Below, piece by piece: positions 1 to 63,463 of a DNA stretch of 64,000 bases; the stretch's first letter is position 1, and each line of letters starts with the position of its first letter. Below the pieces are notes generated by a model. That model had not been told where the DNA came from. It did no database searches and saw only the letters and a program-made list of their open reading frames with translations. Both the position numbers and the translations under genes were made by a program. This DNA comes from an uncultured Clostridia bacterium (GTDB taxonomy: Bacteria; Bacillota; Clostridia; Oscillospirales; Ruminococcaceae), in assembly GCA_946498095.1 (NCBI GenBank), contig CAMMMX010000018.1, positions 765 through 64,764 on the forward strand. The letters run 5' to 3'.

Positions 1-94
1 CCTATCAAAAATACACTAGGTAAGGGGTATTGACTTACAAATATACGACATCAAAAAATATTACGTTCTTGGCGGAAAAGACAATTAGAAAAAA

Positions 95-604
95 TTAGCG
101 AGCCTCTTCTAACTCCATACCGAACTCATAGATTCGGAAATATTTGCCTTGATAAAAAACGAGCGCCTCGTTATTCCAATAAGGATGGTATCCGTTTGCA
201 TAACAAGGAATAATCACCTTGCGGGTGAATAAACATTTCCGTAAAAGGGTGCTGTCGTTACAGCTTACACTCAGGATAAAATTGTTTTGGTTATCGGGAT
301 GAGGTATGATTTGTAACAGGCAGTACTCCCCTTCGTAACGTTTGCCAAGATAGGTAAATCCAGTCCGATCTGCTTGAACCGGAAAATGTGAACGCAAGTC
401 CTGAAGCGTATCTGTGTCAGTCAGATCGTCTAAAATTATAAAATTCCTCCGACCGTCCTTTCTGTATATATCCCAGTCTTGCGATATAGGATACTGCACA
501 TCAATCGCCTGACGATAACCGTTTGATCTGGGCATTGAAAAGGCCTCCGCGCAAGCCAGAAATGCGGCATCACTACCTGCATACAAAACAGTTAGTGGCT
601 GCAA
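95..604 (-). CDS. hypothetical protein (169 aa), distal gene of a 4-gene minus-strand cluster
   Basis: Open frame beginning (TTG 604) 8 nt after the stop of the upstream hydrolase gene. No motif I recognise, and the start is uncertain. Confidence 0.4.
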   Translation of the reverse strand: MQPLTVLYAGSDAAFLACAEAFSMPRSNGYRQAIDVQYPISQDWDIYRKDGRRNFIILDDLTDTDTLQDLRSHFPVQADRTGFTYLGKRYEGEYCLLQIIPHPDNQNNFILSVSCNDSTLLRKCLFTRKVIIPCYANGYHPYWNNEALVFYQGKYFRIYEFGMELEEAR

Positions 605-611
605 GTAGACG

Positions 612-2594
612 CTAAGAAGGCCTAACCCCTTTTCGCTCGGTATGATTGTATGCCGTCTGTTGACTTCTTATGAAAGTCTTTTCCTGCTTAACATAGTGAA
701 TTTCAGTAGCATCAAAATCCTCATAGTAAAATACATGTCCATTTATATGGACAGTAAAGAAAGAGCGGTTGATAAACGGTGGAATCTTCAGACGAAGTCC
801 CGTAATATTTCTAGCCCTTATCCGGATCATACCGCTATCTGCATGCAGCTTTACTTTTGCATATGTTCTTGTATAGCTGATGCCGTCTAACTCCACCCAG
901 AACGCTTTGAGGTGGCATGCGTCATAGGTCAGAAAATCGATATCTTGGGGATATTTCTCCGCAGACTTGGACAGCATTTCCTCTATGAAAGTAACCTTGC
1001 CGGAAAATTGATGGAGCCAAACATGCTTGTAGTATGCCGGCAGACAGCCCTCATAATCTGGCAGCTTTTTGAGTCTGGGCTCCAGAGCGTCAAATGTCGG
1101 CTGTTTCATGGTGTCAAAATCGGAGGAGTAATTCACCACCTTGACATGCGCAAGGTTCTGCATCAAATTGTGTTCTGCTAGCCCGGAGAAAACATAGATA
1201 CCGGCGAAAAGATCCGGGTAGCGCTGCGCAATTGCCCATGTCGCCGACGCGCCATTCGAAGTTCCATATGCATAAATACGCTGCGGGTCAATTGGGAACA
1301 AGTTCATCAAATGGGAAAGTTGTTCCATGATGGCTGCCTCTCCAATATAACTGCCCATTGTTACCCCTCTTGCGTAAAAATCCGCTAAAATAAATTGCCT
1401 GCCCGAATAGCTTTGAAAACAAATCGAATGAAAACCTCTATTTGCCATTGAATTTGCGATAATCAAAGGATAACTCTGTTGCCCATCGTAATCCCTCGGT
1501 AGCGTCACATCATAGTAGTTTACTCGGTGATCGAGCGCGGAACGGTAGTAGACGCGTTCTTGTTTGCCGCTTGTAATAAGGTCCCAATAATGGCCGTTGT
1601 CCTGCCATGCAAGCATAAGCATTGCTAATCGGTCGCAAGTATACAGGGTTCCCATCGGGTTATCCCGACAGATTTCAAAATCGTTTTGCAGCTGCTCCCA
1701 TGCGAGCAAGTCCATTTCTTCCGGCTGGATCAATGACAGCATTTCCTTTGCTTGCCTGAGAAGCCGATCCCGGGACTGAAAAATATCATGCAGGAAAACG
1801 TCTGTCGTCATATCTTCTTGCCTTCCGTCCCGATATCGATAATGGAATCGAAAGACCAGATGCGTCAGACCTGCAGCGGGTGCGAAATCATAAAGGGACG
1901 GGTCAATTTCATAGATAACCCCTATCTGGATAAAGCGTGTTTCGACTGGTTGAAACGGATAGGACGGGCCTATTTCCAGCCAGACATCTTGATCTGGATC
2001 GAGATCGACCGTATTATTGAGGACGGTTATGAAACGATAGATGCCGCCTTGGGTGAAATCCCGCTGGTTATCAATAATCCACAGCGTTTTATCCCGAAAG
2101 TAGCGATTGCTGTGCAGCAGACTAAGCTTTCCTGGCTTTATTTCATCTTCATAGCGGCTGAGGCGCATTGTCATATATGCGTTCTCTGGCAGAATAGGAG
2201 CCTCTAAAACGAACTCGTTACAAGCTTGTTCAAAGGTATGGACAATGGGAACCGACAGATACATGTCATCACTCATTGAAATTATCGTTTGATTCAGCCA
2301 GATTTTCATTGGAAAATTGTTTTCGATGAAGAGGACAAAACGTGTCCCGGGAGTTGTATGAACGCGAAAACGAAAGCAGGTCGTCTGTTTTGGGTAATCG
2401 CATTCGGATACGTAAATCTGGTCGTCGGTATCAGGACGCGATATCAGTCGTATATCAGCGTCAGGGCGCGGGGTTAATTCTGCGGTAAAAGTCGTATTAT
2501 GAAACGAATATTCCTCCTGCAGGGTCCCCGGATAAGCGGCTAATGTGTCAATGAAAATTGGTTCATTGGATAATTGATATTCAAAAGCTTCCAT
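612..2594 (-). CDS. large cytoplasmic alpha/beta-hydrolase (S9/esterase-like serine hydrolase), ~660 aa
   Basis: Nucleophile elbow G-x-S-x-G in YAYGTSNGASATWAIAQRYPDLF. Start moved to ATG 2594 (MEAFEYQ...) because a GGGAGAG RBS lies 6 nt upstream. No signal peptide. Confidence 0.6.
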   Translation of the reverse strand: MEAFEYQLSNEPIFIDTLAAYPGTLQEEYSFHNTTFTAELTPRPDADIRLISRPDTDDQIYVSECDYPKQTTCFRFRVHTTPGTRFVLFIENNFPMKIWLNQTIISMSDDMYLSVPIVHTFEQACNEFVLEAPILPENAYMTMRLSRYEDEIKPGKLSLLHSNRYFRDKTLWIIDNQRDFTQGGIYRFITVLNNTVDLDPDQDVWLEIGPSYPFQPVETRFIQIGVIYEIDPSLYDFAPAAGLTHLVFRFHYRYRDGRQEDMTTDVFLHDIFQSRDRLLRQAKEMLSLIQPEEMDLLAWEQLQNDFEICRDNPMGTLYTCDRLAMLMLAWQDNGHYWDLITSGKQERVYYRSALDHRVNYYDVTLPRDYDGQQSYPLIIANSMANRGFHSICFQSYSGRQFILADFYARGVTMGSYIGEAAIMEQLSHLMNLFPIDPQRIYAYGTSNGASATWAIAQRYPDLFAGIYVFSGLAEHNLMQNLAHVKVVNYSSDFDTMKQPTFDALEPRLKKLPDYEGCLPAYYKHVWLHQFSGKVTFIEEMLSKSAEKYPQDIDFLTYDACHLKAFWVELDGISYTRTYAKVKLHADSGMIRIRARNITGLRLKIPPFINRSFFTVHINGHVFYYEDFDATEIHYVKQEKTFIRSQQTAYNHTERKGVRPS

Positions 2595-2625
2595 GTCGTA
2601 TCTCTCCCTATTTTTTGAATCACAC

Positions 2626-3183
2626 CTAATGTAGCTCAAAACAATCAATGGAAGGATAGGAATACCCGTTATCCGATTGGGTTTTGGTTACTTGAAACTT
2701 GACATACCGACTTTCCGCTGGGCTTTCAAGCGTAAAGGATCGTTTTTGAATTCCCAAAAGGCCATCGTCATATTGATATACAAGAGTCCAATTCTTTTGA
2801 TCGTTCGAAACGGAAAGCGCAAATCCCGCGATGTGATTGGTTAGTCGGGTTTGTTTAATCACGAATTGGGAAAAAGGCAATGTTTCCTCCAAATCAATGA
2901 CAAACCATTCCTCTGCTCCACTTCCCTCTTTCGCGCTCCAGTTGGTATTCGGCTGATCGTCGACCATCTTGTCTGGCAAGCAATTTTCAAAGGGAACGCC
3001 GTTTTCGTCGCTCCAAACACTGGAGGCGACAACGGGTTTTTGATAGCAAAGGCTGGAGCGCTCAACCTCTATATAGCAGCGAATCTCTTCGTAATGTTGG
3101 TCGTCGTCGGCTTTGATTTCCAGTTCATGTACAACCGTATTTTGCGTATCGATGACCACGGAGCCCAAAGGGGGTACCGCCAC
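2626..3183 (-). CDS. discoidin / F5-8 type C (CBM32-like) domain protein, 185 aa
   Basis: NWSAKEGSGAEEWFVIDLEETLPFSQFVIKQ...FALSVSNDQKNWTLVY is the typical F5/8-C pattern. GTG start, no signal peptide. Confidence 0.5.
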   Translation of the reverse strand: MAVPPLGSVVIDTQNTVVHELEIKADDDQHYEEIRCYIEVERSSLCYQKPVVASSVWSDENGVPFENCLPDKMVDDQPNTNWSAKEGSGAEEWFVIDLEETLPFSQFVIKQTRLTNHIAGFALSVSNDQKNWTLVYQYDDGLLGIQKRSFTLESPAESRYVKFQVTKTQSDNGYSYPSIDCFELH

Positions 3184-3250
3184 GATCGAATGGGCTTCTC
3201 CATTAACTTTGAAAATCCTTTAGCTTAAAAAATAAAAGGGGAGTCTGATG

Positions 3251-3682
3251 TTACGCAGTGTAGGGATAGTCAAAGAAATGTTGATACCCTTGCGCGACTC
3301 CCTCAAAGGAGCAGGGATACGAATCAAATTTGCCATTGACCATTTTGAGCGTATAAAACTCTTTATGCGCATCATCGTATCCATAAATCACAAGGCTATG
3401 GATAAATCCTTCGGTACGGCTTGGGTCTCCGGCTAGGTATTTATGGTCAAGAAAAACAATCGCATAAAAATCAAACAATTCCGCGTAATAATCATAATTG
3501 ACGCCGTTGCCGCAGTAATCAAAATTGAAGTTGTCTACAAAACGAACCGTACAGACATTGATAAAGTTTTCATCCACCCAGTTTTTTAATTTCGGTTCGG
3601 CTAAAATAACGCTCATAGGTAATGCGTGTTCAAAGGTGGCGGTCATATTGTGGTTTTTGTTGACGGGAAGTCTCTTTTGCAT
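3251..3682 (-). CDS. hypothetical protein, 143 aa (speculatively a small papain-fold/BtrH-like protein: DYCGNG ... HSLVIYGYDD)
   Basis: ATG 3682 is preceded by a GGAGG RBS, and this is the first gene behind a consensus promoter. The family call is speculative. Confidence 0.45.
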   Translation of the reverse strand: MQKRLPVNKNHNMTATFEHALPMSVILAEPKLKNWVDENFINVCTVRFVDNFNFDYCGNGVNYDYYAELFDFYAIVFLDHKYLAGDPSRTEGFIHSLVIYGYDDAHKEFYTLKMVNGKFDSYPCSFEGVAQGYQHFFDYPYTA

Positions 3683-3716
3683 AATAGTACCTCCAAAATA
3701 ACCTTTATATGGAAAT

Positions 3717-3745
3717 ATTATACAATAGTAATCTTGGGATTTCAA
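3717..3745 (-). promoter_or_regulatory. sigma-A type promoter for the 3682->95 cluster
   Basis: Minus strand reads TTGAAA (3745-3740), 17 nt, TATAAT (3722-3717), about 35 nt upstream of the ATG. Confidence 0.6.
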
Positions 3746-3997
3746 CTTGTTTTTACAATTGTACAGCATGCGCGGCCGGATACTCTTTCTGTCATTTTCC
3801 CTGTACGCTAGGTTCGTTTTTGCTGATGGTTTCACTGGAAAGAAAAAGGACAGAGGAAAGAAATTTTATTTTGTTAAATATGCATTTTAGCGTAAAAATA
3901 TACAAATAAAGCTGTATAATATGCTGCCGGCAAGAATAATATTCATTATGACCAAAATATTAAAAAAGAGCCGAATGAAAATATGGTAATTTACATA

Positions 3998-4026
3998 TAG
4001 ACAAATGCGTCAGAATCGGTTATAAT
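3998..4026 (+). promoter_or_regulatory. sigma-A type promoter of the pyr operon
   Basis: TAGACA (3998-4003), 17 nt, TATAAT (4021-4026). Confidence 0.55.
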
Positions 4027-4046
4027 ATAATGGAATCAGAAGATTG

Positions 4047-4210
4047 CCTTTAAGTTGGTACTGCGAGACTGACAAGGGTTGGATACATCCAAAAGATTTC
4101 CGCTGCCTGTTGTGAACAGGTGGGAGGGCGTGCTATATTGCGGCTGCCCTGTACGGAAAACGGGGAGAAAAGAGGACCTATCTGTCAGGCAACGGCAGAT
4201 AGGTTTTTTT
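4047..4210 (+). promoter_or_regulatory. PyrR-type transcription attenuation leader
   Basis: The stem-loop CCUUUAAG..GUACUGCGAGACUGACAAGG (4047-4078) resembles the PyrR binding loop. It is followed by alternative hairpins and an intrinsic terminator directly in front of pyrR. Confidence 0.55.
4177..4210 (+). terminator. intrinsic terminator (attenuator) in the pyr leader
   Basis: Stem CCTATCTG (4177-4184) / CAGATAGG (4196-4203) followed by 7 T. Confidence 0.7.
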
Positions 4211-4256
4211 GTGGAAAAGTAACGCGGCGGACGCTCCGCCCGACGGAGGGACTCGT

Positions 4257-4784
4257 TTGAAAGAGAAAGCAGTCATATTGGACGAAAAGGCGATGGCGCG
4301 CGCTATTGCGCGGATCTCCTATGAAATCCTTGAGCGAAACCGCGGGGTGGAGGACCTGTGCGTCATCGGTTTGCTGACGCGTGGTGCCGACATTGCTGCC
4401 CGTATCGCTAGGAAGATACAGGAAGTCGAGGGTATCGCCGTGGAGGTGGGGTGTCTGGATATTACGCCCTATCGCGACGACCGTCCAGGCGGGAAGGAGG
4501 AGGGACGCACCCGCATCCCTTTTTCGGTCGGGAACAAGCGTGTGGTTTTGGTCGACGACGTCATTTATACCGGGCGCAGCGCCCGTGCCGCCATGGATGC
4601 GGTGATGGCACGGGGACGTCCCCGTGCGGTGCAGCTTGCCGTTCTCATTGATCGTGGACACCGCGAGTTGCCCATCCGTGCGGACTTCGTGGGAAAGAAC
4701 GTCCCGACTTCCCGGGAGGAGCTGGTACAGGTCATGGTCAGCGAAACCGATGGCTGTGACAAAGTACTCATCTGTGAACGGTAA
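4257..4784 (+). CDS. pyrR: bifunctional pyr operon regulator / uracil phosphoribosyltransferase PyrR
   Basis: PRPP loop VVLVDDVIYTGRSARAAMDAV and overall PyrR-like sequence. TTG 4257 was chosen because a GGAGGG RBS precedes it and the track start (4209) lies inside the terminator T-tract. Confidence 0.85.
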   Translation: MKEKAVILDEKAMARAIARISYEILERNRGVEDLCVIGLLTRGADIAARIARKIQEVEGIAVEVGCLDITPYRDDRPGGKEEGRTRIPFSVGNKRVVLVDDVIYTGRSARAAMDAVMARGRPRAVQLAVLIDRGHRELPIRADFVGKNVPTSREELVQVMVSETDGCDKVLICER

Positions 4785-4811: not shown

Positions 4812-6089
4812 GTGAATCAGGTTTTGATAAAAAACGCATATCTCGTTGATCCGTCGATGCAGATAGAGGAGAATGCGGATATTCTTATCCAGGATGGATT
4901 GGTGGTTAAGGTATGCGACTATATTTCGGACCGCGACTTTGACGGAGAGGTGATCAATGCCGAGGGATTGATCGCCGCGCCAGGCCTTATTGATATGCAT
5001 GTGCACTTCCGGGACCCCGGCTATACCCACAAGGAGGATATCCTGTCCGGCTGTGCATCGGCTGCTGCTGGCGGCTTTACGGCCGTTGCCTGCATGCCGA
5101 ATACGAATCCTGTGGCAGATACGCCTCAGGTGATCCGTTACATGATAGAGAAAGCCGTCCCTACAGGGGTGAGGGTTTTCCCTGTTGCGGCGATTTCCCA
5201 AGGGATGCGCGGCGAGGTGCTGACGGATTTTGCCCTTCTGAAGGAGGCGGGAGCAGTAGCTGTTTCGGACGACGGCCGTCCCGTGCGGAATGCAGCGCTG
5301 ATGCAGGCCGCGATTGAGCGGGCGGAAGAATACGGCCTGCTGGTCATCTCCCACTGTGAGGACCTCGACATTATCGGAAAAGGGATCATGCATAAAGGCA
5401 GCGTTAGCGAGGCACTGGGAGTGCCCGGAATGGACCGTTCCTCTGAAGACAGCGTCACGGCCAGGGAAATTGCGTTGGCAGCTGCGACCGGCGGCCGCGT
5501 CCATATCGCGCACGTCAGTACAAAAGGCGCCGTCGCCTTTATCCGCGACGCCAAACGCCGCGGGGTGCGTGTCACGGCGGAAACTGCGCCGCATTATTTT
5601 ATGCTTACGCACGCGTTGTTGGCTAGCCGTGACGCCTGTTACCGGATGAATCCGCCGCTGCGTGAGGAGGACGACCGGAGGGTTATCCGCCGCGCCGTGA
5701 TTGACGGTACCATTGACTGTATCGCTACCGACCACGCGCCACATACTGCACAGGAGAAGGCGGTTTTTGAGACTGCTCCTAACGGTGTAGTGGGATTGGA
5801 AACATCGCTGGCGGTTACGCTGACCAAGCTGTACCATGACCGTCACGTCTCGCTGACGCGGGTCATTGAGCTTTTGTCGACGCGTCCGGCGCGGGTGCTT
5901 GGCATCGAGGGCGGTACGCTGCGGGAAGGTGCGCGTGCCGATATCGTGCTGTTTGATAAGGAGCGGGAATGGACGGTCCACCCGGATGAACTGGTCTCAC
6001 GCTCGAAAAACACAGTGTTCAAGGGAATGACGCTGAAAGGCAAGGTCATCCGAACTATCAGCGCAGGCAGGACGATTTATCAAGGATAG
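4812..6089 (+). CDS. pyrC: dihydroorotase
   Basis: 425 aa with the metal-binding motif GLIDMHVHFRDPG, plus ...HCED... and ATDHAPH. GTG start. Confidence 0.9.
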   Translation: MNQVLIKNAYLVDPSMQIEENADILIQDGLVVKVCDYISDRDFDGEVINAEGLIAAPGLIDMHVHFRDPGYTHKEDILSGCASAAAGGFTAVACMPNTNPVADTPQVIRYMIEKAVPTGVRVFPVAAISQGMRGEVLTDFALLKEAGAVAVSDDGRPVRNAALMQAAIERAEEYGLLVISHCEDLDIIGKGIMHKGSVSEALGVPGMDRSSEDSVTAREIALAAATGGRVHIAHVSTKGAVAFIRDAKRRGVRVTAETAPHYFMLTHALLASRDACYRMNPPLREEDDRRVIRRAVIDGTIDCIATDHAPHTAQEKAVFETAPNGVVGLETSLAVTLTKLYHDRHVSLTRVIELLSTRPARVLGIEGGTLREGARADIVLFDKEREWTVHPDELVSRSKNTVFKGMTLKGKVIRTISAGRTIYQG

Positions 6090-6119: not shown

Positions 6120-7049
6120 ATGTCCATGGACAGGCTGATTGAGAAGATCATCAGGATGCAGAATCCGACGGTTGTAGGGCTCGATCCCAAACTCGATTAC
6201 GTACCGGATTACATCAAGGAGAAGATGTTTGACAAGTACGGCAATACTCTGAAAGCCGCGTCGAAGGCGCTGTATGCCTTTAACAAGGAACTCATCGATA
6301 ACCTCTGCGATATTGTTCCCGCGGTCAAACCGCAGTGTGCTTACTACGAGATGTACGGCTGGCAGGGCGTTAAGGCACTGGCCAAGACGATCCGCTACGC
6401 ACAGGAGAAGGGGATGTTCGTCATCGTTGACGGCAAGCGCAACGACATCGGAACCACGATGGAGGCCTACACCGCCGGACATTTGGGTGAGATTGACGTA
6501 AACGGCGAGACGCTGACCCCCTTCGGCGGCGACGCCCTTACGGTCAACGCCTATCTCGGCTCGGACGGCATCACTCCTTTGCTCAAGACCTGCCTGGAGT
6601 ACGATAAAGGCATCTTTGTCTTAGTCAAGACCTCCAACCCCTCCTCCGGCGAGCTGCAGGACCGAGAAATAGACGGCGTGCCTGTCTACCGTTTGATGGG
6701 GGAGCTTTGCGAACGCTGGGGAGAAGCGGATCCGGGCGCGTTCGGGTACTCCGGTGTCGGTGCGGTCGTCGGTGCAACCTATCCGGAGCAGCTTGCACAG
6801 CTACGGAAGGATTTGCCGCATACCTTCTTCCTCGTGCCGGGCTACGGCGCGCAGGGGGGAGGCGCGAAGGACGTCGCCGGCGGCTTTGACGAAAACGGCC
6901 TTGGCGCGATTGTCAATTCCTCCCGTGCCGTTATGACCGCCTACAAGAAGGAAGGCTGCGATGAAAAAGACTTCGGCGCAGCAGCGAGCAGGGAAGCTAC
7001 CCGTATGCGTGACGAAATCCTCGGCTTTATCGGAAAAATCGGACGTTAA
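6120..7049 (+). CDS. pyrF: orotidine-5'-phosphate decarboxylase (long, type 2 form)
   Basis: 309 aa with VVGLDP...KPQCAYYE...VDGKRNDIG motifs. AAAGGGAGG RBS. Confidence 0.85.
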   Translation: MSMDRLIEKIIRMQNPTVVGLDPKLDYVPDYIKEKMFDKYGNTLKAASKALYAFNKELIDNLCDIVPAVKPQCAYYEMYGWQGVKALAKTIRYAQEKGMFVIVDGKRNDIGTTMEAYTAGHLGEIDVNGETLTPFGGDALTVNAYLGSDGITPLLKTCLEYDKGIFVLVKTSNPSSGELQDREIDGVPVYRLMGELCERWGEADPGAFGYSGVGAVVGATYPEQLAQLRKDLPHTFFLVPGYGAQGGGAKDVAGGFDENGLGAIVNSSRAVMTAYKKEGCDEKDFGAAASREATRMRDEILGFIGKIGR

Positions 7050-7185
7050 ACGGTGAATTTGTCCTGAGGCTCCGCCTCAGACTCCGTTTAAGGAACTTTT
7101 TTCAAAAAGACCCCTAAGCGGGGTTGGGGGTGGAACCCCCAAGGCAGATTTACCCGTTACCATACAAGGAATAGGAGGCAGACAG

Positions 7186-8259
7186 ATGTCAATATGGATG
7201 GAAGAGAGCAAGGCGGCGTATCTATTGCTGAGTGACGGCACTTTATTCACCGGCAGGCATTTCGGTGCGGAAGGGACGTACATTGGCGAAGCGATGTTTA
7301 CGACGGCGATGGTGGGTTACCAGGAAGCGCTGACCGATCCATCGAACTATGGCAGCGTAATTGTGCAAACCTTTCCGCTGGCGGGAAATTACGGGGTAAA
7401 TGCGGCGCAGATGGAATCATCCCGGGCCTGGGCGGGGGCGTTTGTGGTTCGTGAGTGGTGTGACGCGCCGTCCAGCTTTCGCTGCGAGGGAGATCTGGAT
7501 ACCTTTTTGAAGGAACAGAATGTTGTAGGCTTGTACGACATCGATACCCGCCATCTGACGCGCCATCTGCGCGATCACGGATCAATGCCCGCCATGGTCA
7601 CCACACAGGACGTCTTTGCAACAAAGGATACGCTGCTTCAGCAGCTTGCCGCCTGGAAAGTCGGTGACGCGCTGCGAGCGGTGTCCTGCCGGGAAATGAA
7701 GTGTATGCCTGCGTCCGACGCTAAGAAAGTTGTCGCGGTATATGACTACGGCTGTACCAATAGCCTTATCAATCGACTGCATGCCTTGGACTGCGACGTT
7801 GTGCTGCTCCCCTGGGACACGAAAGCAGCTGACTTGGCGGCGCTGTCGGTCAAGGGAGTTATACTGCCACATGGCGCAGGGGATCCGGAAAGCTATGGCG
7901 AGGCGGTGAAGATCCTCAAGGGACTGGACGCTGTGGGGGTGCCCGTTTTTGGGTATGGTCTTGGGCATCAGTTGTACGCGTTGGCGCACGGCGCTCATTG
8001 TGAGAAGCTGAAATACGGCCATCATGGCGGCAGTCAGCCGGTGCTGGATTTACGCACCAACCGCACCTATGTTACGACGCAGAACCATAGTTACACGGTA
8101 ACCGGTATCAGTCCGGATGTTGCGGAGGTTTGCTTCAAAAATGCCAACGACGGCACCTGTGAGGGACTTTTGTACAAAAATGTCTCTTCACTGACGGTGG
8201 AGTTCACGCCCGGCGCCTACGGAGAGACGCTGCTGGAGGACTTTGTCCGCGGGCTGTAA
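7186..8259 (+). CDS. carA: carbamoyl-phosphate synthase small subunit homologue with a degenerate glutaminase active site
   Basis: Collinear with CarA along its full length (TAMVGYQEALTDPS, DIDTRHLTRHLR, GHHGG, QNHSYTV). The triad positions read GYGLGHQ and VEFTPG instead of GICLGHQ and HPE. AGGAGG RBS. Confidence 0.85.
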   Translation: MSIWMEESKAAYLLLSDGTLFTGRHFGAEGTYIGEAMFTTAMVGYQEALTDPSNYGSVIVQTFPLAGNYGVNAAQMESSRAWAGAFVVREWCDAPSSFRCEGDLDTFLKEQNVVGLYDIDTRHLTRHLRDHGSMPAMVTTQDVFATKDTLLQQLAAWKVGDALRAVSCREMKCMPASDAKKVVAVYDYGCTNSLINRLHALDCDVVLLPWDTKAADLAALSVKGVILPHGAGDPESYGEAVKILKGLDAVGVPVFGYGLGHQLYALAHGAHCEKLKYGHHGGSQPVLDLRTNRTYVTTQNHSYTVTGISPDVAEVCFKNANDGTCEGLLYKNVSSLTVEFTPGAYGETLLEDFVRGL

Positions 8260-8298
8260 GTATCGAATTTTGACACGTGAGCGGAAAGGAAGGAACAT

Positions 8299-11200
8299 AT
8301 GCCACTGAGACAGGATATCAAAAAGGTACTGGTCATCGGATCCGGGCCGATTATCATCGGACAGGCGGCTGAATTCGATTATGCTGGAACACAGGCTTGC
8401 CGTGCCCTGAAACAGGAGGGGCTGCAGGTGGTTCTCATCAACTCGAACCCTGCAACCATCATGACCGACAAGGCGATGGCGGACACCATCTATATCGAGC
8501 CGCTGACTTTGGACGTGGTCAAGCGCGTCATAGAAATGGAAAAGCCGGACAGCATCCTCTCCACACTCGGAGGGCAAACGGGTCTGACGCTTTCGATGCA
8601 GCTTGCGGAAGAGGGGTTCCTCGACGCCCACGGCGTCAAGCTGTTGGGCGCACGCCCCGACACCATCCACAAGGCGGAGGATCGTCAGGCGTTTAAGGAT
8701 ACGATGGAGAAGATTGGGGAGCCCTGTATCCCTTCGAAAGTGGTGGAGACCGTCGAGGATGCGATGGAATTTGCCAAGGTTATCGAATACCCGGTCATTA
8801 TCCGTCCGGCGTTTACGATGGGCGGTACCGGCGGAGGCATTGCCCATACGCCGGAAGAGTTGCATGAAATTGCTACCAACGGCCTTAGGCTTTCCCCCAT
8901 TACCCAAATCCTTGTGGAAAAGAACATCTCCGGCTGGAAGGAGATCGAGTTTGAGGTCATTCGTGACTCGAAGGGCAACGTTATCACTGTCTGCTCGATG
9001 GAGAATGTTGACCCGGTCGGTGTGCACACCGGTGATTCGATTGTTGTCGCACCCGCAGTGACGCTGACTCCGCCGGAGTACGCGATGCTGCGTACCGCCG
9101 CGCTGAACATCGTATCGGAGCTTGGGGTTGAGGGCGGCTGCAACTGCCAGTTCGCGATGCATCCCGAACGGATGGAGTATGCGGTCATTGAAGTCAATCC
9201 TCGTGTGTCGCGCTCGTCGGCGCTGGCATCCAAGGCGACAGGATATCCCATCGCCAAGGTAGCGACGCGGATCGCCATCGGTTACAGCCTGGACGAGATT
9301 GTCAACGCTGTGACGGGCAACACCTTCGCCTGTTTCGAACCGTCGATCGACTACATGGTTGTCAAGTTCCCTAAATGGCCGTTTGACAAGTTTGTTTACG
9401 CCAAACGTACCCTTGGCACCCAGATGAAAGCTACCGGCGAAGTAATGAGCATCGGTACCTCCTTTGAACAGGCCATGATGAAGGCTGTGCGTTCGATTGA
9501 GCTGTCGCTGGACACTTTTAATCTCCCTAAGCTGGCTGCGCTGAGTGATGCGGAAATTATTGAAAAGCTCCACGAGGCGGACGATGAACGGATTTTTGTC
9601 GTCTATGAGGCGCTCAAACGCGGTGTGAGCGTGGACAAAATTCATGCTTTGACCATGATCGACGAGTGGTTCCTTTCGAAGCTTTGTAATCTCGTCGAGA
9701 TGGAAAAACGCATGGCACGGGGCGGACTGACCGATGAGGAATACCTGACGGCGAAGAAGCTAGGTTATCCCGACAGCACCATCGAACGCCTGACGGGAGA
9801 GAAGATCGCCCATCCCCGCCATAGCGTCTTCAAGATGGTGGATACCTGCGCGGCGGAGTTTTCAGCTGACACCCCCTACTTCTATTCCACCTTTGACGAC
9901 GAAAATGAAGCGGCGGAATTCATCGAGCAGCATCCGACGGGAAAGAAGAAAATCATGGTGTTCGGCTCCGGGCCGATCCGGATTGGACAGGGGATCGAGT
10001 TCGACTATTGCTGTGTCCACTGCGTCTGGGCGCTGAAAGCGGCGGGGTGTGAGACGGTGCTGGTCAACAATAACCCTGAAACTGTTTCCACCGACTTTGA
10101 CACCGGCGACCGCCTCTATTTCGATCCGCTCACCCGTGAGGACGTTGCCTCTATCATCGAGACGGAAAAGCCGGACGGTGTGGTCGTCCAGTTCGGCGGC
10201 CAGACAGCAATTAAGCTTACCAAATACCTCAAGGACATGGGTGTCAATATTCTCGGTACCTCCCCGGACAGCATCGACATGGCGGAGGACCGCGAGCGCT
10301 TCGACGAGCTCCTCGAGAGATGTGGGATCCCTCGTCCTCAGGGCTGTACCGTATTCACGGAGGCTGAGGCCCTGGAAGCGGCGGAGAAGCTTGGATATCC
10401 GGTGCTGATGCGGCCCTCCTACGTGCTGGGCGGTCAGAATATGATTATCGCCCATTCCGACGCCGATATTATAGAATACATGAAGATTATCACCGCCCAT
10501 GAGTTGGAGAACCCGGTGCTGATCGATAAGTATATGATGGGGACCGAGGTTGAGGTCGACGCCATTTGCGATGGAAAGGACTTCCTGATTCCCGGCATTA
10601 TGGAGCATATCGAACGTGCCGGCGTCCATTCCGGAGACTCCATTTCGGTTTATCCGGCGCAGACGTTGTCGGATAAGGTCAAGCAAACCATTATTGACTA
10701 TACGGGGCGGCTGGCCAGAGAGCTGAAAGTCGTCGGCCTGGTGAATATCCAGTACGTGGTCTACCGCGGCGAGGTGTACGTCATCGAGGTCAACCCGCGC
10801 TCCTCTCGTACGGTTCCCTACATTAGCAAGGTGACCGGTGTGGAAATGGTGGACGTTGCTACCAAGATTATGCTGGGTGAAACGCTGGAGAGCCTAGGGT
10901 ACCGCGGCGGCCTTTACCCGGAGGCCGGTTATATCGCCGTCAAGGTCCCGGTGTTCAGCTTTGAGAAACTGCACGACGTCGACACCCATCTGGGGCCGGA
11001 GATGAAGTCCACCGGTGAGGTGCTTGGCATCGCGAAAACCTTCAAGGAGGCGCTGCTTAAGGGGCTGACCGCCGCAGGGTACCGTTTGAAAAAGCAGGGC
11101 GGTGTGTTCATCTCGGTGCGTGACACCGATAAGAAGGAGATTGTCAGCGTAGCGCAGAAGTTCTCCGACCTTGGGTTCGATATCTACGCCACAAGCGGGA

Positions 11201-11493
11201 CCGCGAGCTTGCTTAACCGCAATATGATTGCGACCAGTACGGTGCGGAAAATCAGCGAAGATCCGGACAGCAATGTGCTGACGCTGCTGGAAAGCGGAAA
11301 GATCGATTACGTGATTTCCACCTCGGCCAAAGGGCGGATGCCGGCACGGGACAGCGTCAAGATTCGCCGGAAGGCAGTCGAGCGGTCGATTGCATGTCTC
11401 ACGTCCCTAGATACGGCCAACGCCCTGGCGGACTGTCTGGCGATGAAGGAGACCATTGCTGATGTTCCTCTGGTGGACATCACCAAAATATAA
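8299..11493 (+). CDS. carB: carbamoyl-phosphate synthase large subunit
   Basis: 1064 aa with duplicated ATP-grasp halves (GSGPIIIGQAAEFDYAG / GSGPIRIGQGIEFDYC, VIEVNPR twice) and a C-terminal MGS-like allosteric domain. Confidence 0.95.
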   Translation: MPLRQDIKKVLVIGSGPIIIGQAAEFDYAGTQACRALKQEGLQVVLINSNPATIMTDKAMADTIYIEPLTLDVVKRVIEMEKPDSILSTLGGQTGLTLSMQLAEEGFLDAHGVKLLGARPDTIHKAEDRQAFKDTMEKIGEPCIPSKVVETVEDAMEFAKVIEYPVIIRPAFTMGGTGGGIAHTPEELHEIATNGLRLSPITQILVEKNISGWKEIEFEVIRDSKGNVITVCSMENVDPVGVHTGDSIVVAPAVTLTPPEYAMLRTAALNIVSELGVEGGCNCQFAMHPERMEYAVIEVNPRVSRSSALASKATGYPIAKVATRIAIGYSLDEIVNAVTGNTFACFEPSIDYMVVKFPKWPFDKFVYAKRTLGTQMKATGEVMSIGTSFEQAMMKAVRSIELSLDTFNLPKLAALSDAEIIEKLHEADDERIFVVYEALKRGVSVDKIHALTMIDEWFLSKLCNLVEMEKRMARGGLTDEEYLTAKKLGYPDSTIERLTGEKIAHPRHSVFKMVDTCAAEFSADTPYFYSTFDDENEAAEFIEQHPTGKKKIMVFGSGPIRIGQGIEFDYCCVHCVWALKAAGCETVLVNNNPETVSTDFDTGDRLYFDPLTREDVASIIETEKPDGVVVQFGGQTAIKLTKYLKDMGVNILGTSPDSIDMAEDRERFDELLERCGIPRPQGCTVFTEAEALEAAEKLGYPVLMRPSYVLGGQNMIIAHSDADIIEYMKIITAHELENPVLIDKYMMGTEVEVDAICDGKDFLIPGIMEHIERAGVHSGDSISVYPAQTLSDKVKQTIIDYTGRLARELKVVGLVNIQYVVYRGEVYVIEVNPRSSRTVPYISKVTGVEMVDVATKIMLGETLESLGYRGGLYPEAGYIAVKVPVFSFEKLHDVDTHLGPEMKSTGEVLGIAKTFKEALLKGLTAAGYRLKKQGGVFISVRDTDKKEIVSVAQKFSDLGFDIYATSGTASLLNRNMIATSTVRKISEDPDSNVLTLLESGKIDYVISTSAKGRMPARDSVKIRRKAVERSIACLTSLDTANALADCLAMKETIADVPLVDITKI

Positions 11494-11523
11494 GCTTGTA
11501 AAGAGTGAAAGCATAGAAACAAA

Positions 11524-11548
11524 GGGACGCCCGTAAGCGTCCCTTTTT
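11524..11548 (+). terminator. intrinsic terminator after carB
   Basis: GGGACGC, loop CCGTAA, GCGTCCC, followed by TTTTT. Confidence 0.8.
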
Positions 11549-12053
11549 GCATGGACTGTGTAGACAGTACCGGAAATATGTCAGACGCCCGGAAGAATTT
11601 TTCGTTTTTTGCGTCCAACACATCCCCTGTTTTAGGGCTTCTATTGACAATTTGTTCATTTTTTGTGGGGCGCCGTCTGCGCCGGAAAAGCAGTCCGGCA
11701 GAGTTGGCACCTTTGTACAGTCAAAAGCATTAAAATTACAAATTGGTTACAAAACACGCCCGCATTTGTAGGCTTGCATAATCTGGAAGTGTTTATTTTG
11801 GTCAGTTTAACGGAATATTAACACATCCTGTCGGGAAATGTGTTACAATTTGTAATATCTTCATGGTGAGCAGCTATGACCCGCCGGGCAGGCGTCTCCT
11901 CACATGGCAAGTGACATATGGCTTTGTAAAATTTAACGGAAAAACTGTTGCAAGTTCAGCGGAATTTAGGTAAAATAAAAATTAGCTGAATGTTTGCGGA
12001 TGCTGCTATGTCTGAGTAAACGTTTTAAAATTTGTTGCAAGAGGGGAAAATAC

Positions 12054-13139
12054 ATGTCTAACAGGCTATTTCAGGGCGTGATTCATCAAATGAAGGATGC
12101 GGTTGACCGCGTTATCGGCATTGTCGACGATACGGGCACCGTTATTGCGTCAAGTGATCTGTCCAAAATCGGCACGGTTTCCGACTGCACCAGCTTTGAT
12201 TTTACCGAAGCGCAGGAAATTTTTATTCGGGACGGATACACCTATAAGCCGTTCGGCGCGAATATCAAGCCGGATTATGCGGTATTTGTTCAGGGCACTG
12301 ACGAGATTGCGATTCGTTATGCGTCGATTATGGGGATTTCTCTCTCCAATATCAAGCAGTATTACGATGAAAAATATGACCGGGCCAATTTTATCAAGAA
12401 TGTTGTCCTGGATAACATTCTCCGCGGTGATGTATACGTCAAGGCGAGGGAACTGCATTTCAATGCGGATGTAACCCGCGTTGTGCTGTTGATGCGCATT
12501 GTTTCCCCCAATGAGGTATCGGCGTATGACATTATCCAGAATCTGTTTCCGGATAAGAGCAAGGATTTTGTTTTTAATATTTCCGAGGCTGATATCGTCC
12601 TGGTTAAGGAGATAAAGCCCAATATCAATATGAAGGATCTCGAAAAGCTGGCGAACTCCATTTCCGATACGCTAAGCTCCGAGTTCTACACCCGGATCAA
12701 CGTCGGTATCGGCACCTGCGTCACCGGCATAAAAGATTTGGCGCGTTCTTTTAAAGAAGCGCAGATCGCGCTGGAGGTTGGCAAGGTGTTCGACACGGAC
12801 AAGACCATCATTACCTATGAAAATCTCGGTATCGCTCGACTGATTTACCAGTTACCGACAACGCTGTGCGATACGTTTTTGCGTGAAGTGTTCAAGCGTG
12901 GCTCGATTGAGTCGCTGGACAATGAAACGCTGTTTACCATACAGAAGTTTTTTGAAAACAACTTGAATGTATCCGAGACCTCCCGCAGACTGTTTGTCCA
13001 CCGCAATACCCTGGTGTACCGGTTGGAGAAGATCAAGAAGCTGACAGGGCTGGATCTCCGTGAGTTCGATCACGCAATTGTTTTCAAAATCGCTCTAATG
13101 GTTAAGAAGTACCTCAGCGCAAATCCTGTCAAGTTCTAA
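12054..13139 (+). CDS. PucR/CdaR-family transcriptional regulator
   Basis: C-terminal PucR-type HTH (NVSETSRRLFVHRNTLVYRLEKIKKLTGLDLREFD). ATG 12054 with an AGAGGGGAAAA RBS is preferred over the longer track ORF. Confidence 0.7.
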   Translation: MSNRLFQGVIHQMKDAVDRVIGIVDDTGTVIASSDLSKIGTVSDCTSFDFTEAQEIFIRDGYTYKPFGANIKPDYAVFVQGTDEIAIRYASIMGISLSNIKQYYDEKYDRANFIKNVVLDNILRGDVYVKARELHFNADVTRVVLLMRIVSPNEVSAYDIIQNLFPDKSKDFVFNISEADIVLVKEIKPNINMKDLEKLANSISDTLSSEFYTRINVGIGTCVTGIKDLARSFKEAQIALEVGKVFDTDKTIITYENLGIARLIYQLPTTLCDTFLREVFKRGSIESLDNETLFTIQKFFENNLNVSETSRRLFVHRNTLVYRLEKIKKLTGLDLREFDHAIVFKIALMVKKYLSANPVKF

Positions 13140-19072: not shown

Positions 19073-20773
19073 TTGAAAGGATGTGGTGTGAGGATGGATT
19101 TGCAAACGTTATTGCACAGCGGCAGGCCAGTGCTCCTTGACGGCGCGATGGGGACAATGCTGCAAAATAAGGGGCTGGCTGCCGGACAGGCCCCTGAGAC
19201 CATGAACCTGAATAACGGTGATGCTGTGCAAGAGGTGCATGAGGCGTATTTGAAGGCAGGCAGCGATATGGTGCTGACCAATACATTCGGTGCCAATGCT
19301 TGTAAGATGTCCCCTTTAGGGTTGTCGGTGCAGGAGGTTGTGGAACGTGCCGTGAAACTAGCCCAGCAGGCGAGGGATGCATCGGGAAAGGATGCATGGA
19401 TCGGCCTTGACATGGGTCCTACTGGGCAGATGCTGTACCCAATGGGAACGCTTTCCTTTGAAGAGGCTTACGCGCTGTACCGGGAGCAGGCCATCGCCGG
19501 TGCGGCAGCGGGGGCGGATTTTGCCCATATTGAAACCATGTCCGATTTGCTGGAGCTAAAGGCGGCGGTTCTCGCCGTACGGGAAAACACTTCTTTGCCG
19601 GTGATGTGCACCATGACGGTGGATAAAAGCCTGCGTACCTTCACTGGCTGCCATATCGGATGCATGGCGGCCGCGATGGAGGCATTGGGAGTAGTTGCGG
19701 TGGGGGTTAACTGTTCGCTGGGGCCGCAGGATCTGGTGCCGGTGGTGAGGGAGCTTGCCAGGTATACCGACTTGCCGCTGATTGTGAAGCCGAACGCCGG
19801 GCTCCCTGTCCTTTTGGAGAACGGAGAGACAACTTTTGATGTTACGCCTGAACAGTTTGGAGAGTGGATGGCGCCCTACTGTGCCATGGGAGCGGTGGTA
19901 CTCGGCGGCTGCTGCGGCACGTCGCCGGATCACATTCGCTGTTTGGCCGACAGCGTCCGCGGCCTTGCTGTTGCTCAACGGGAGCCGGTACGGGGATTGA
20001 CCGTTTGTACGGCGTCCAAGGCGGTTACCCTTGGCGACGGTGTCAAGCTGGTGGGGCAGCGCATCAACCCGTCGGGCAATGCAATGATGACCCAGGCTGT
20101 CTGCACAGGGGATTTCGACACCATTGTTGAGCTTGCCATCGATCAGCTGTCGGATGGTGCGGATATGTTAGATGTCAACGTCTTTGTCGACGGTGTTGAC
20201 GAAGTAGCGGCAATGCGGGAAGCGGTGGCGGCGGTTCAAGCGGCCTGCCATGCTCCTCTGCTGATCGATTCGATGGATCCTGCGGCGCTGGAAGCCGGAT
20301 TACGCGTCTACAGCGGTAAGCCGGTGCTGAACTCCGTGCCGGTGACACAGAAGGCGATGGAAACGCTTTTGCCGCTTGCAAAGCGATATGGCGCCGCCGT
20401 TGTCGGCATGACGCTGTCCGAGGCGGGGATCCCCCGTACAGCGCAGGAACGTCTTGCGCTTGCACAGCGCTTTATTGACACCGCGCTTTCGTACGGAATT
20501 CCCCGGCGGGATATCCTGATTGACTGCGTGACACAGGCCCACAGTATGGACCCGGATAGCGCCTGGCAGACGTTGCAGGCGGTGCAGGCGCTACACGCGC
20601 AGGGCGTGTACACGATCCTCGGGATTGGGAATGTCTCTTATGGTCAGCGTGACCGTGCGCCGCTGGAGGCAATGTATGCGAATCTTTGCGTCCATGCGGG
20701 GGCGGACGCGATCATTCTGAATCCGGCAAGCGCGTCGGTGATGGATGCCGTGGAGGCCAGCGGGCTGGCTTAA
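19073..20773 (+). CDS. homocysteine S-methyltransferase + pterin-binding domain protein (MetH N-terminal half, no B12 module)
   Basis: Hcy domain with Zn-Cys motifs (VGVNCSLGP, GGCCGTSP) followed by a pterin-binding barrel. The protein ends right after it. Exact start uncertain (19073/19088/19094). Confidence 0.75.
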   Translation: MKGCGVRMDLQTLLHSGRPVLLDGAMGTMLQNKGLAAGQAPETMNLNNGDAVQEVHEAYLKAGSDMVLTNTFGANACKMSPLGLSVQEVVERAVKLAQQARDASGKDAWIGLDMGPTGQMLYPMGTLSFEEAYALYREQAIAGAAAGADFAHIETMSDLLELKAAVLAVRENTSLPVMCTMTVDKSLRTFTGCHIGCMAAAMEALGVVAVGVNCSLGPQDLVPVVRELARYTDLPLIVKPNAGLPVLLENGETTFDVTPEQFGEWMAPYCAMGAVVLGGCCGTSPDHIRCLADSVRGLAVAQREPVRGLTVCTASKAVTLGDGVKLVGQRINPSGNAMMTQAVCTGDFDTIVELAIDQLSDGADMLDVNVFVDGVDEVAAMREAVAAVQAACHAPLLIDSMDPAALEAGLRVYSGKPVLNSVPVTQKAMETLLPLAKRYGAAVVGMTLSEAGIPRTAQERLALAQRFIDTALSYGIPRRDILIDCVTQAHSMDPDSAWQTLQAVQALHAQGVYTILGIGNVSYGQRDRAPLEAMYANLCVHAGADAIILNPASASVMDAVEASGLA

Positions 20774-55597: not shown

Positions 55598-56557
55598 ATG
55601 GTACCAGGATGGATGAGGAACCTGGCACAGGAGACTGGACTTAACTGTTCGGAGAAACGAGGCGTTATATACGGTGAGTATAACGGCTGCCGCGTGACTG
55701 TACACATGAACCAGCAGCAGAGGCGAGTCTTTGTTCAGTTTTGGACGAAGGAGAGCGGACAGTATCCGACTGGGGAGAAGCTGGCAGATTTTTTAGCAGC
55801 CTACCCGCAGCAGAATACGCAGGTACAGTCTGCGCAGACGCAGGGGAATGCGGCGATTTTGGTGCTGAAACTGTCCAGTGCCAAAAAGACCGGCGCAGCG
55901 GTCAAGGCTGCTGTGACGGATACGGCGGATTTTCTGCGCCGTAACGGTTACGTGTCCTGCTGTGAGCAGTGCGGCACAGAGGAAGGCTTGTCCACTTATG
56001 TGGTGAACGGCGGCGTGACGGTACGTTGCAGCGCCTGCTACCAACAGCTGCAGGAGGGCTTGCATGCGGCCAAACAGGAGATCAAGGCTAGGCGTGGCAA
56101 TATGTTTACCGGAGTAATCGGTTCGTTTGTGGGAGCGCTGATAGGCGTCATTGTTTGGGTCATCATCTACCAGATGGGTTATGTTGCCGGGCTGGCAGGG
56201 CTGGTGCTGGCGGTTTGCGCGCTGAAGGGCTACGAGCTGCTTGGTGGCAAGCTCAATGCGGGCGGACTTGCGATTTCCTGCGTTATCGCAGTGGTAATGG
56301 CTTTTGTGGCGCACAACGTCGGATTTGGTTTGATCATTTACCAGGAGATCGGTAAGGAGATTGGCGCGACGGTGTTTGAGTCCATCCGCCTCATTCCCGA
56401 TTTCCTTTCTCTCAGCGGCGAAATCAGCGGGGCTTATGTGCAGGATTTGGTGATCGGATATTTGTTGATGATCGTCGCGGCGGTACCGACCATTATCGGT
56501 ATGTACAGGTCCAAGAATTTGCTGATGACAATGGAGCAGCTTCCCGACGTCGCTTGA
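55598..56557 (+). CDS. hypothetical zinc-ribbon membrane protein (319 aa)
   Basis: Soluble N-terminal domain, CCEQCG...CSACY (CxxC-x17-CxxC), then ~4-5 TM helices. AAAGGGGA RBS. Confidence 0.6.
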   Translation: MVPGWMRNLAQETGLNCSEKRGVIYGEYNGCRVTVHMNQQQRRVFVQFWTKESGQYPTGEKLADFLAAYPQQNTQVQSAQTQGNAAILVLKLSSAKKTGAAVKAAVTDTADFLRRNGYVSCCEQCGTEEGLSTYVVNGGVTVRCSACYQQLQEGLHAAKQEIKARRGNMFTGVIGSFVGALIGVIVWVIIYQMGYVAGLAGLVLAVCALKGYELLGGKLNAGGLAISCVIAVVMAFVAHNVGFGLIIYQEIGKEIGATVFESIRLIPDFLSLSGEISGAYVQDLVIGYLLMIVAAVPTIIGMYRSKNLLMTMEQLPDVA

Positions 56558-56669
56558 GGGCGTATGATAAACAGGGAACTGTCTTTGAACAGATCCTGCT
56601 ACAAGGGTAGCTATCCTTGAGATGGGGCAGTCTTGTGACGGTTTGGACACAAAAGAGGCGCTTATCGAA

Positions 56670-56702
56670 ACCCGGCTGGTACATGGAACGTGCCAGCCGG
56701 GT
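56670..56702. terminator. bidirectional hairpin between convergent genes, at the island boundary
   Basis: 13-bp stem ACCCGGCTGGTAC / GTGCCAGCCGGGT, followed by TGTGCTTTATT. Confidence 0.55.
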
Positions 56703-56708
56703 TGTGCT

Positions 56709-57683: not shown

Positions 57684-57837
57684 GTATATCCACCTCTTTT
57701 TTTATCATTCATCCTACATCCGTTATAAAAACATATATTTGTTCTTTTCCTTATCATAATATAACAAAATAAAATAATCTAATGGTAATTATAACAAAAT
57801 AACAGAAAAATAATTGTACACAATGCCTAAATTGGGG

Positions 57838-57868
57838 CAAAAAACAAGCCGGTTATAAACACCGGCTT
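57838..57868 (-). terminator. intrinsic terminator after the ABC-2 operon
   Basis: Minus strand reads AAGCCGGT / ACCGGCTT stem followed by GTTTTTTG. Confidence 0.75.
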
Positions 57869-57882
57869 CATAAAAAGACAAT

Positions 57883-61153: not shown

Positions 61154-61173
61154 TGGTATTGTCCCCCTTCTCT

Positions 61174-62262: not shown

Positions 62263-62316
62263 AATACACCATCCTTTCGCGCCGTCAGACTTGTGAGAGC
62301 TTTACAAAGCCAGTCA

Positions 62317-63282: not shown

Positions 63283-63463
63283 ATCCGAAAGCTCCCAATT
63301 GTTAGAATTTTCATTGTTTGAAAGCGATCCGCATCAATAAAGCCATCGAGTAAAGTGATTTTACCAACCGAATGTTGACAGTGCTTGTTCCCTTTTTCGA
63401 GACGACCACTGAATTAAGTTGTTTGATTCTGTAGTTCGGCTCTTCATATCAGCATTCATAAAA

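Follow-up and report, generated by a model that had tools for sequence, protein, structure and literature searches.

Can a carbamoyl phosphate synthetase (CPS) small subunit that has lost every residue with which it would cleave glutamine remain a working part of its enzyme? The question is raised by carA at positions 7186-8259 (+ strand) of a 64-kb stretch of DNA from an uncultured Clostridia bacterium (hereafter the window), which a preliminary description had singled out as encoding a small subunit without a catalytic triad. We denote the gene carA* and propose, with a confidence of about two in three and largely on comparative grounds, that its product is a folded pseudo-enzyme that would hydrolyze no glutamine, and that CarA*-CarB would act as an NH3-dependent CPS.

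The open reading frame (ORF) encodes 357 amino acids with no internal stops, is preceded by an AGGAGG ribosome-binding site (7173-7178, + strand, 7 nt 5' of the ATG) and ends with a stop codon at 8257-8259, 39 nt before the ATG of carB at 8299 on the same strand; the intact frame, the AGGAGG and the 39-nt spacer are as first described. Its product passed the cut-offs of both CarA family models, NF009475 (336.9 bits; cut-off 221) and TIGR01368 (317.9 bits; cut-off 307.35), and Pfam places the CPSase_sm_chain domain at residues 13-138 and the GATase domain at residues 185-353. We delimit an N-terminal CarB-docking domain of near-normal conservation (residues 1-139; 7186-7602, + strand) and a class-I GATase-like domain (residues 181-357; 7726-8256, + strand) whose fold is kept and whose chemistry is lost. 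The triad columns were set by phmmer against E. coli CarA structures, by a MAFFT alignment of E. coli CarA with 119 homologues and by a 262-sequence alignment, and all three methods gave the same assignment. PVFGYGLGHQ of window CarA pairs with PVFGICLGHQ in the phmmer comparison, and both phmmer and MAFFT put Gly258 (GGT, 7957-7959, + strand) in the column of the E. coli nucleophile, Cys269. Thr341-Pro-Gly343 (8206-8214, + strand), followed by a five-residue deletion, replaces His353-Pro-Glu355, with Thr341 (8206-8208) in the His353 column and Gly343 (8212-8214) in the Glu355 column of the MAFFT alignment; one alignment has a gap rather than Gly at 355, and Glu is absent in both versions. Among the 119 homologues in the MAFFT alignment, these columns hold Cys in 114, His in 108 and Glu in 113. 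The preliminary description had proposed an alignment to the CarA family model as a check on its claim; the cut-offs are passed and the triad columns confirmed, and the replacement of the triad by Gly, Thr and Gly is borne out by profile, pairwise and multiple alignment alike.

Window CarA thus lacks the Cys-His-Glu triad required of a glutamine-hydrolyzing class-I amidotransferase. Glutamine hydrolysis by E. coli CPS depends on Cys269 and His353 (PMC6245113), and from the mutant data on these two residues we infer that glutaminase activity is absent from window CarA. Profiles, alignments and a structure model together lead us to describe carA* as the gene of a CPS small subunit with its catalytic triad abolished, a pseudo-glutaminase: by sequence, fold and synteny it belongs to the CarA family, but the catalytic feature that defines glutamine amidotransferases is missing from it.

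The changes extend beyond the triad. The clade has 144 columns with conservation of 95% or more, and window CarA is off consensus in 41 of them, the derived changes including K202T, S239P, N240H, P242A, I268Y, N294S and G313S; it is also without G359-P360-x-D362-T363 through an in-frame deletion of five codons (15 nt; positions 359-363). The glutamine pocket and oxyanion region is altered at S239P, N240H, P242A and G313S, and the glutamine-contact positions S47, G241, G243, L270, Q273 and N311 are still present, as is H312. The pocket drift reported earlier therefore stands only in part: S239P, N240H and P242A are derived, but the six contacts just listed are retained, and of the change from GGNHPV to GGSQPV, N294S is derived but Q295 is the consensus of the clade.

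Might these differences be errors of sequencing, assembly or alignment? The DNA of window positions 6827-10113 recurs with 100% identity in at least eight contigs that were assembled independently and come from several sequencing projects, which excludes the assembly errors that the preliminary description had named as fatal to its claim; the three alignment methods concur on the triad columns, and an artifact would require several separate nucleotide changes together with a 15-nt deletion. We therefore rejected an artifact or a misaligned triad, an explanation whose probability we regard as negligible. An AlphaFold 2 (AF2) model of window CarA, built from a 69-sequence alignment, has a mean predicted local distance difference test score (pLDDT) of 90.9 and a predicted template-modeling score (pTM) of 0.90, with a sole dip (pLDDT ~68) at residues 341-350, the remodeled His/Glu loop. 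It matches E. coli CarA (1JDB/1CS0) with a template-modeling (TM) score of 0.91 at 2.0 Å and the N-terminal moiety of human CPS1 with a TM score of 0.86. The marks of a pseudogene, namely a frameshift, a premature stop, a lost start or ribosome-binding site, or neutral evolution, are absent from carA*, and its relaxation is domain- and residue-specific. The sequence is real and the gene unbroken.

An unbroken gene may nevertheless be a redundant copy on its way out, with carbamoyl phosphate coming from a second carAB or from a carbamate kinase/arginine deiminase route while carA* drifts to loss. The partner gene bears on this point. carB (8299-11493, + strand; 1064 amino acids) encodes a canonical CPS large subunit of the pyr-operon type, which is 77-79% identical to pyr-type CarBs that share 75-77% identity among themselves, has all checked catalytic and tunnel-gate residues, including C232, A251 and A314, and, of 375 columns that are universally invariant, has changes in 5 where its peers have 6-9; the carB that had been called normal is so on each of these counts. 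The small subunit has evolved differently: canonical CarA pairs whose CarBs are 76-77% identical are themselves 65% identical, whereas window CarA reaches only 46-50% identity with canonical CarAs whose CarBs are 77-80% identical to that of the window. In a relative-rate test carried out per CarA domain with E. coli as outgroup, canonical relatives reach 48.8±2.6% identity to E. coli in the GATase domain and window CarA 32.0% (z=-6.5); in the N-terminal docking domain the values are 48.6±3.4% and 42.7% (z=-1.7), near-normal conservation that agrees with the first impression of this domain. These values point to an acceleration of about twofold, confined mainly to the GATase half, in a gene that does not appear to be decaying. 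The twofold relaxation of the GATase domain is where the earlier interpretation needs revising: its core reading, a dead but retained small subunit beside a normal carB, agrees with all that could be computed, but it overlooked both the relaxed evolution and the fact that the case is not singular.

The accelerated GATase domain and the 41 changed columns are what decay would produce, and a second carA is plausible in a clade that has both pyr-linked and arg-linked CPS operons. Yet the ORF has stayed intact through ~50% divergence, the only sizeable indel at its C-terminal end being the in-frame deletion of five codons; the N-domain rate is near normal; and constraint is normal on the carB partner and across the operon as a whole. 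Relatives of window CarA closer than ~50% were found neither among 5.8 billion 90%-clusters nor among 1.84 billion 50%-representatives, and the identical contigs of the window lineage hold no variation to give a ratio of nonsynonymous to synonymous substitution rates (dN/dS), which leaves decay some room. The ratio was measured in the Merdimmobilis/Phocea lineage, in which Gly stands for Cys and Ala for Glu (dS ~0.33); it is 0.06 for carA as a whole, 0.04-0.05 for its GATase-like domain, 0.04 for its N-terminal domain, 0.02 for carB, ~0.08 for pyrC and 0.03 for pyrF. In this lineage a dead GATase-like domain is under strong purifying selection. The comparison of orthologues that the preliminary description had suggested gives a dN/dS of ~0.05 in a related triad-less lineage; what stands in the His and Glu columns differs from one triad-less lineage to the next.

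Relaxation is also specific to particular residues, rather than uniform as decay would have it. Residue retention was compared between 112 CarAs without the Cys and 136 canonical ones: the Cys-less proteins keep the canonical residue in 19% of cases at S47, 18% at N240, 31% at K202, 58% at Q273, 12% at H353, 35% at E355, 55% at G359 and 33% at P360, while D114-T115-R116 of the N-domain core is kept in 100% and the 289-GHxG..P296 segment, T308, Q310, H312, D334, E338-G339 and P354 in at least 90%. Because catalytic and pocket residues relax selectively, glutaminase chemistry and, in general, glutamine binding appear to have been lost, and the pattern indicates continued constraint on those parts that, going by the E. 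coli structure, probably face CarB. With a homologous dead domain held at a dN/dS of ~0.05 and relaxation distributed in this way, we consider decay of a redundant copy unlikely.

The same residues speak to the idea that glutamine can still bind in the dead pocket and that CarA* serves CarB as an allosteric sensor of nitrogen status, not as a mere scaffold. Retention of S47, G241, G243, L270, Q273, N311 and H312 in window CarA would suit such a regulatory pseudo-enzyme, and the E. coli C269G and C269S mutants, in the work of Rubino and colleagues from 1986, reportedly bind glutamine and show stimulated ATPase activity, do not use glutamine and retain the use of NH3. It is the glutamine contacts, however, that relax most among Cys-less CarAs (S47, N240 and Q273 in particular), and the window pocket is itself altered by N240H, S239P, P242A, G313S and K202T, so that we hold a sensory role to be distinctly improbable.

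How widespread are such small subunits? At least one triad residue is replaced in 13 of the 119 nearest 90%-clusters. When 1.84 billion proteins (50%-identity cluster representatives) were scanned exhaustively with HMMER, only 37 of the best 150 representatives were seen to keep Cys-His-Glu; the Cys is missing from ~105 of these 150, where Gly usually takes its place and Asp, Asn, Ser, Ala or Glu does so in others. Named carriers include Ruminococcus, Oscillospiraceae and Clostridia metagenome-assembled genomes as well as the cultured Merdimmobilis hominis and Phocea massiliensis, and triad-less CarAs occur in both pyr and arg operons in Clostridia. Of 80 metagenome loci sampled by sequence pattern, a procedure that favors conserved sequences, 75 carry a canonical CarA and 3 (~4%) a Cys-less one. 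The triad-less class is a minority by abundance, yet very diverse, a diversity that follows from its fast evolution.

These proteins do not descend from a single loss. Neighbor-joining trees imply 13-33 Cys-to-non-Cys changes by parsimony, versus ~85 with shuffled labels; the nearest neighbor is canonical for 51-59 of the 112 Cys-less CarAs; and by CarB identities the defective lineages are not grouped together. With this many state changes, about half of the proteins beside a canonical neighbor and no grouping of their CarBs, we rejected monophyly of Cys-less CarAs and conclude that the triad losses were independent and numerous (polyphyletic). The window carA is not an isolated case: Clostridia harbor a large population of triad-less CarAs, polyphyletic and so far unremarked, to which it belongs. 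We found no account of a bacterial triad-less CarA in the full-text literature searched, which lacks most subscription journals, so that a prior description is possible.

The arg-type genes deserve separate mention. All four arg-operon carAs (argC-J-B-D-F-carA-carB) from GTDB representative genomes are Cys-less, with GYE (L001:5854-6933), GTV (L002:1144-2280), GVE (L003:638-1753) and SVE (L004:2852-3958) at the triad positions, so that a second copy elsewhere in the genome need not be a working glutaminase. Among the argF-linked loci of the metagenome sample six of seven are canonical despite the four GTDB loci, and we rejected the rule that arg-type CarAs are always Cys-less; loss of the Cys among them is frequent, not a rule. 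Two apparent triad variants (L099 and L103) were likewise rejected and left out of the triad statistics, their carA being frameshifted near the 3' end, and a stop or frameshift at L002:4028-4032 divides the L002 carB in two; these breaks in L002 carB and in L099 and L103 carA may be assembly errors or true pseudogenes. In the databases, the NCBI pipeline calls some Cys-less CarAs (P0292, P0293 and P0138, and the P0142 cluster of Ruminococcus sp./Oscillospiraceae) 'glutamine-hydrolyzing carbamoyl-phosphate synthase small subunit'. On Cys-less CarAs this label is a systematic over-annotation.

Loss of the triad has a counterpart in the large subunit. Asp258 of CarB (E. coli numbering) lies in the carboxyphosphate domain, in the loop TLTD258KEY261Q262IMR265, and E. 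coli has it, as do 64 of 65 canonical partners; six of nine triad-defective lineages carry another residue instead, Pro in the window, L016, L002 and L021, Ser in L001 and Asn in L003. In four of these lineages Gln262 is altered as well, to Ala in the window, whose loop (9070-9084, + strand) carries Asp258 to Pro (CCG, 9070-9072) and Gln262 to Ala (9082-9084) and co-varies with the CarA triad loss. By permutation, without regard to phylogeny, P is ~5×10^-5 for any single CarB column being hit at least five times. His353 is absent in all six lineages without Asp258, and L014 and L052, which are defective and keep His353, retain Asp258. In E. coli, βArg265, αPro360 and αHis361 reportedly form the part of the ammonia tunnel wall that Kim and Raushel are said to have 'perforated' in 2004, and the α359-363 deletion and the βD258P/Q262A changes of the window probably meet at one contact. 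E. coli CPS variants with a blocked or perforated tunnel have normal activity on external ammonia (PMC4655335). The altered α359-363/β258-262 contact may reflect either relaxation or an adaptive opening to bulk NH3. We also offer, as a conjecture that we ourselves find more doubtful than convincing, a broader scheme in which gut and rumen Clostridia have repeatedly turned a glutamine-dependent CPS into an ammonia-dependent one. After triad loss the contact between CarA 353-363 and CarB 258-265 would have been remodeled (in the window by the five-residue deletion, Asp258Pro and Gln262Ala), opening or re-routing the tunnel to bulk NH3 as in the engineered E. coli 'perforated tunnel'; these bacteria would thereby have gained their own counterpart of CPS I, sparing the ATP cost of glutamine synthesis in ammonia-rich habitats.

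What pathway would such an enzyme serve? carA* is the fourth gene of an operon ordered pyrR-pyrC-pyrF-carA*-carB. pyrR (regulator/uracil phosphoribosyltransferase; 4209-4784, + strand) matches NF003549 at 229.6 bits with the alignment beginning at residue 18, and its real start is probably ~15-20 codons inside this maximal ORF; pyrC encodes dihydroorotase (4812-6089, + strand; TIGR00857, 413 bits) and pyrF orotidine monophosphate decarboxylase of subfamily 2 (6120-7049, + strand; TIGR02127, 256.8 bits). A sigma-70-like promoter candidate, TAGACA-17-TATAAT (3998-4026, + strand), is proposed from consensus match only, at 11 of 12 positions. A possible PyrR-binding attenuator leader (4043-4212, + strand) directly 5' of pyrR, a placement that fits, matches RF00515 over the full model length at a sub-threshold 30.7 bits (gathering score 54; E 0.16); no Rfam family reaches its gathering score anywhere in the window, this PyrR-leader match being the only one found below it. 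An intrinsic terminator, AAAGGGACGCCCGTAAGCGTCCCTTTTT (11521-11546, + strand), closes the operon. The earlier statement that carA is operonic with carB can thus be widened to the five-gene order with its promoter, leader and terminator signals. The same order occurs in relatives with a canonical CarA (L017, L023 and L024) and in relatives with a defective one (L014, L016, L021 and L022), and because it is common to both, we regard the window carA*-carB as the orthologous pyrimidine-type CPS.

Context bears as well on a proposal already made in the preliminary description, that ammonia comes from another protein, which could be a glutaminase acting in trans or a second, canonical CarA competing for CarB, CarA* then being an inactive alternative subunit. 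The clade does have two CPS systems. Elsewhere in the 64-kb window, however, there is neither a second carA nor any other CarA-like GATase, and the window contains no nitrogen or arginine genes of note. No conserved accessory ammonia-donor gene lies beside the triad-less operons, and the small genes without Pfam match at L014, L016 and L021 are mutually unrelated and absent from the window, for which reason we rejected them as accessory donors. Moreover, the conserved docking N-domain of CarA* would fill the CarB site, and we know of no precedent for a trans-acting glutaminase serving CPS. We consider a donor in trans very improbable indeed.

Our preferred account is that CarA* is retained most likely as a structural partner needed by CarB, its docking domain and the CarB-facing part of its GATase-like domain staying under constraint, and that CarA*-CarB, produced from a PyrR-controlled operon, would use free NH3 to make the carbamoyl phosphate that pyrimidine synthesis requires, the remodeled α359-363/β258-262 contact perhaps amounting to an altered ammonia entry. 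Several points weigh against this account. NH3-dependent synthesis by E. coli CPS requires very high, probably unphysiological NH3 (PMC6245113), and a CPS living on NH3 alone would need a kinetic adaptation that we assume here. A second carA, arg-type or canonical, or a carbamate kinase route may be present elsewhere in the genome. A gut or cecum origin is known for relatives of this organism only; the confidence of the AF2 model is partly owed to the homologue alignment; and, the window lineage being without polymorphism (its contigs are 100% identical), the case for selection on the window gene is made by analogy and from the fact that it is intact.

Other features of the window are recorded here as observations in their own right. 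The pyrF-carA spacer (7050-7185) is 136 nt long, compared with 20-40 nt in relatives, and contains two adjoining GC-rich hairpins, ACCCC-TAAGC-GGGGT (7110-7124) and GGGGG-TGGAA-CCCCC (~7126-7140), without a + strand U-tract or an Rfam family. In relatives L016, L017, L021 and L024, pyrK-pyrD come after carB; in the window (11494-13139) carB is followed by the terminator and then by a CdaR/PucR-like regulator (11994-13139). Both ends of the window (1-4000 and 56000-64000) have a G+C content of 40-45%, versus ~53-57% elsewhere, and hold ORFs without Pfam match together with an F5/8-type-C domain protein (2626-3183, - strand) and an ATP-binding cassette (ABC) ATPase (58959-59870, - strand); they may be acquired islands. 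A MetH-like ORF (19073-20773) is only 566 amino acids long, MetH models having ~1180-1230 positions, and matches the homocysteine-methyltransferase and pterin-binding parts without the cobalamin-binding and activation modules.

Pyrimidine and arginine biosynthesis both draw on carbamoyl phosphate, whose synthesis is their entry step. If CarA*-CarB and its counterparts do run on ammonia, metabolic reconstructions of abundant gut and rumen Clostridia err on a central assumption, given their automatic annotation as 'glutamine-hydrolyzing', and ammonia specificity like that of CPS I would have evolved convergently and many times. Dozens of independent natural replicates would then be at hand for studying how the tunnel and the inter-subunit interface are rewired after glutaminase loss, with CarB Asp258 as a concrete co-varying site that can be tested. 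Such an enzyme would be functionally convergent with vertebrate CPS I and surprising to CPS specialists, and the phenomenon is broader than the preliminary description saw.

Among known systems, E. coli CarA (1JDB, 1CS0; C269S mutant 1C30) has the same two-domain architecture and fold as window CarA, at 34% identity by tblastn and 38% by local pairwise alignment, is likewise encoded immediately 5' of carB and has a conserved N-terminal docking domain; its laboratory mutants C269S and C269G are the nearest functional analogue of window CarA. The window protein differs from it in the natural loss of all three triad residues, in its changes at K202, N240 and G313 and in the deletion of 359-363, and its gene, unlike E. 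coli carA, sits in a PyrR-type pyr operon. Also comparable are the canonical PyrAa proteins of Oscillospirales-like Clostridia (such as P0002, P0103 and P0055), which occupy the orthologous operon position beside CarBs 77-80% identical to window CarB, keep Cys-His-Glu and share ~65% identity with one another, compared with 46-50% for window CarA to them. The other triad-less CarAs (the Merdimmobilis hominis/Phocea massiliensis P0071 cluster, P0096, P0085 and L001-L004) resemble window CarA in having GLGHQ for CLGHQ, intact ORFs beside carB, accelerated GATase domains and, often, a CarB without Asp258. They differ from it in having arisen independently, by CarB phylogeny, and in what each of them carries in place of His and Glu; only window CarA has the 359-363 deletion, and some of the others are found in arg operons.

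According to a structural study of human CPS1, glutamine is used by every CPS type except vertebrate CPS I (PMC4655335). This enzyme (5DOU/5DOT) likewise retains an inactive glutaminase-like domain whose nucleophilic Cys has been replaced. CPS1 has Ser294 at that position and takes NH3 from the medium (PMC4655335). Vertebrate CPS I is one fused polypeptide of ~1500 residues, needs N-acetylglutamate and has a urea/arginine role, whereas the window encodes separate CarA (357 residues) and CarB (1064 residues) proteins, with a bacterial allosteric domain, in a pyrimidine operon, and this PyrR-type context speaks against an arginine or urea role for the window CPS. CPS I has Ser for Cys and keeps His and Glu, whereas the window has Gly for Cys and has lost His and Glu also. 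Although it belongs to a separate family and has an independent origin, window CarA probably works as the glutaminase-like domain of CPS I does.

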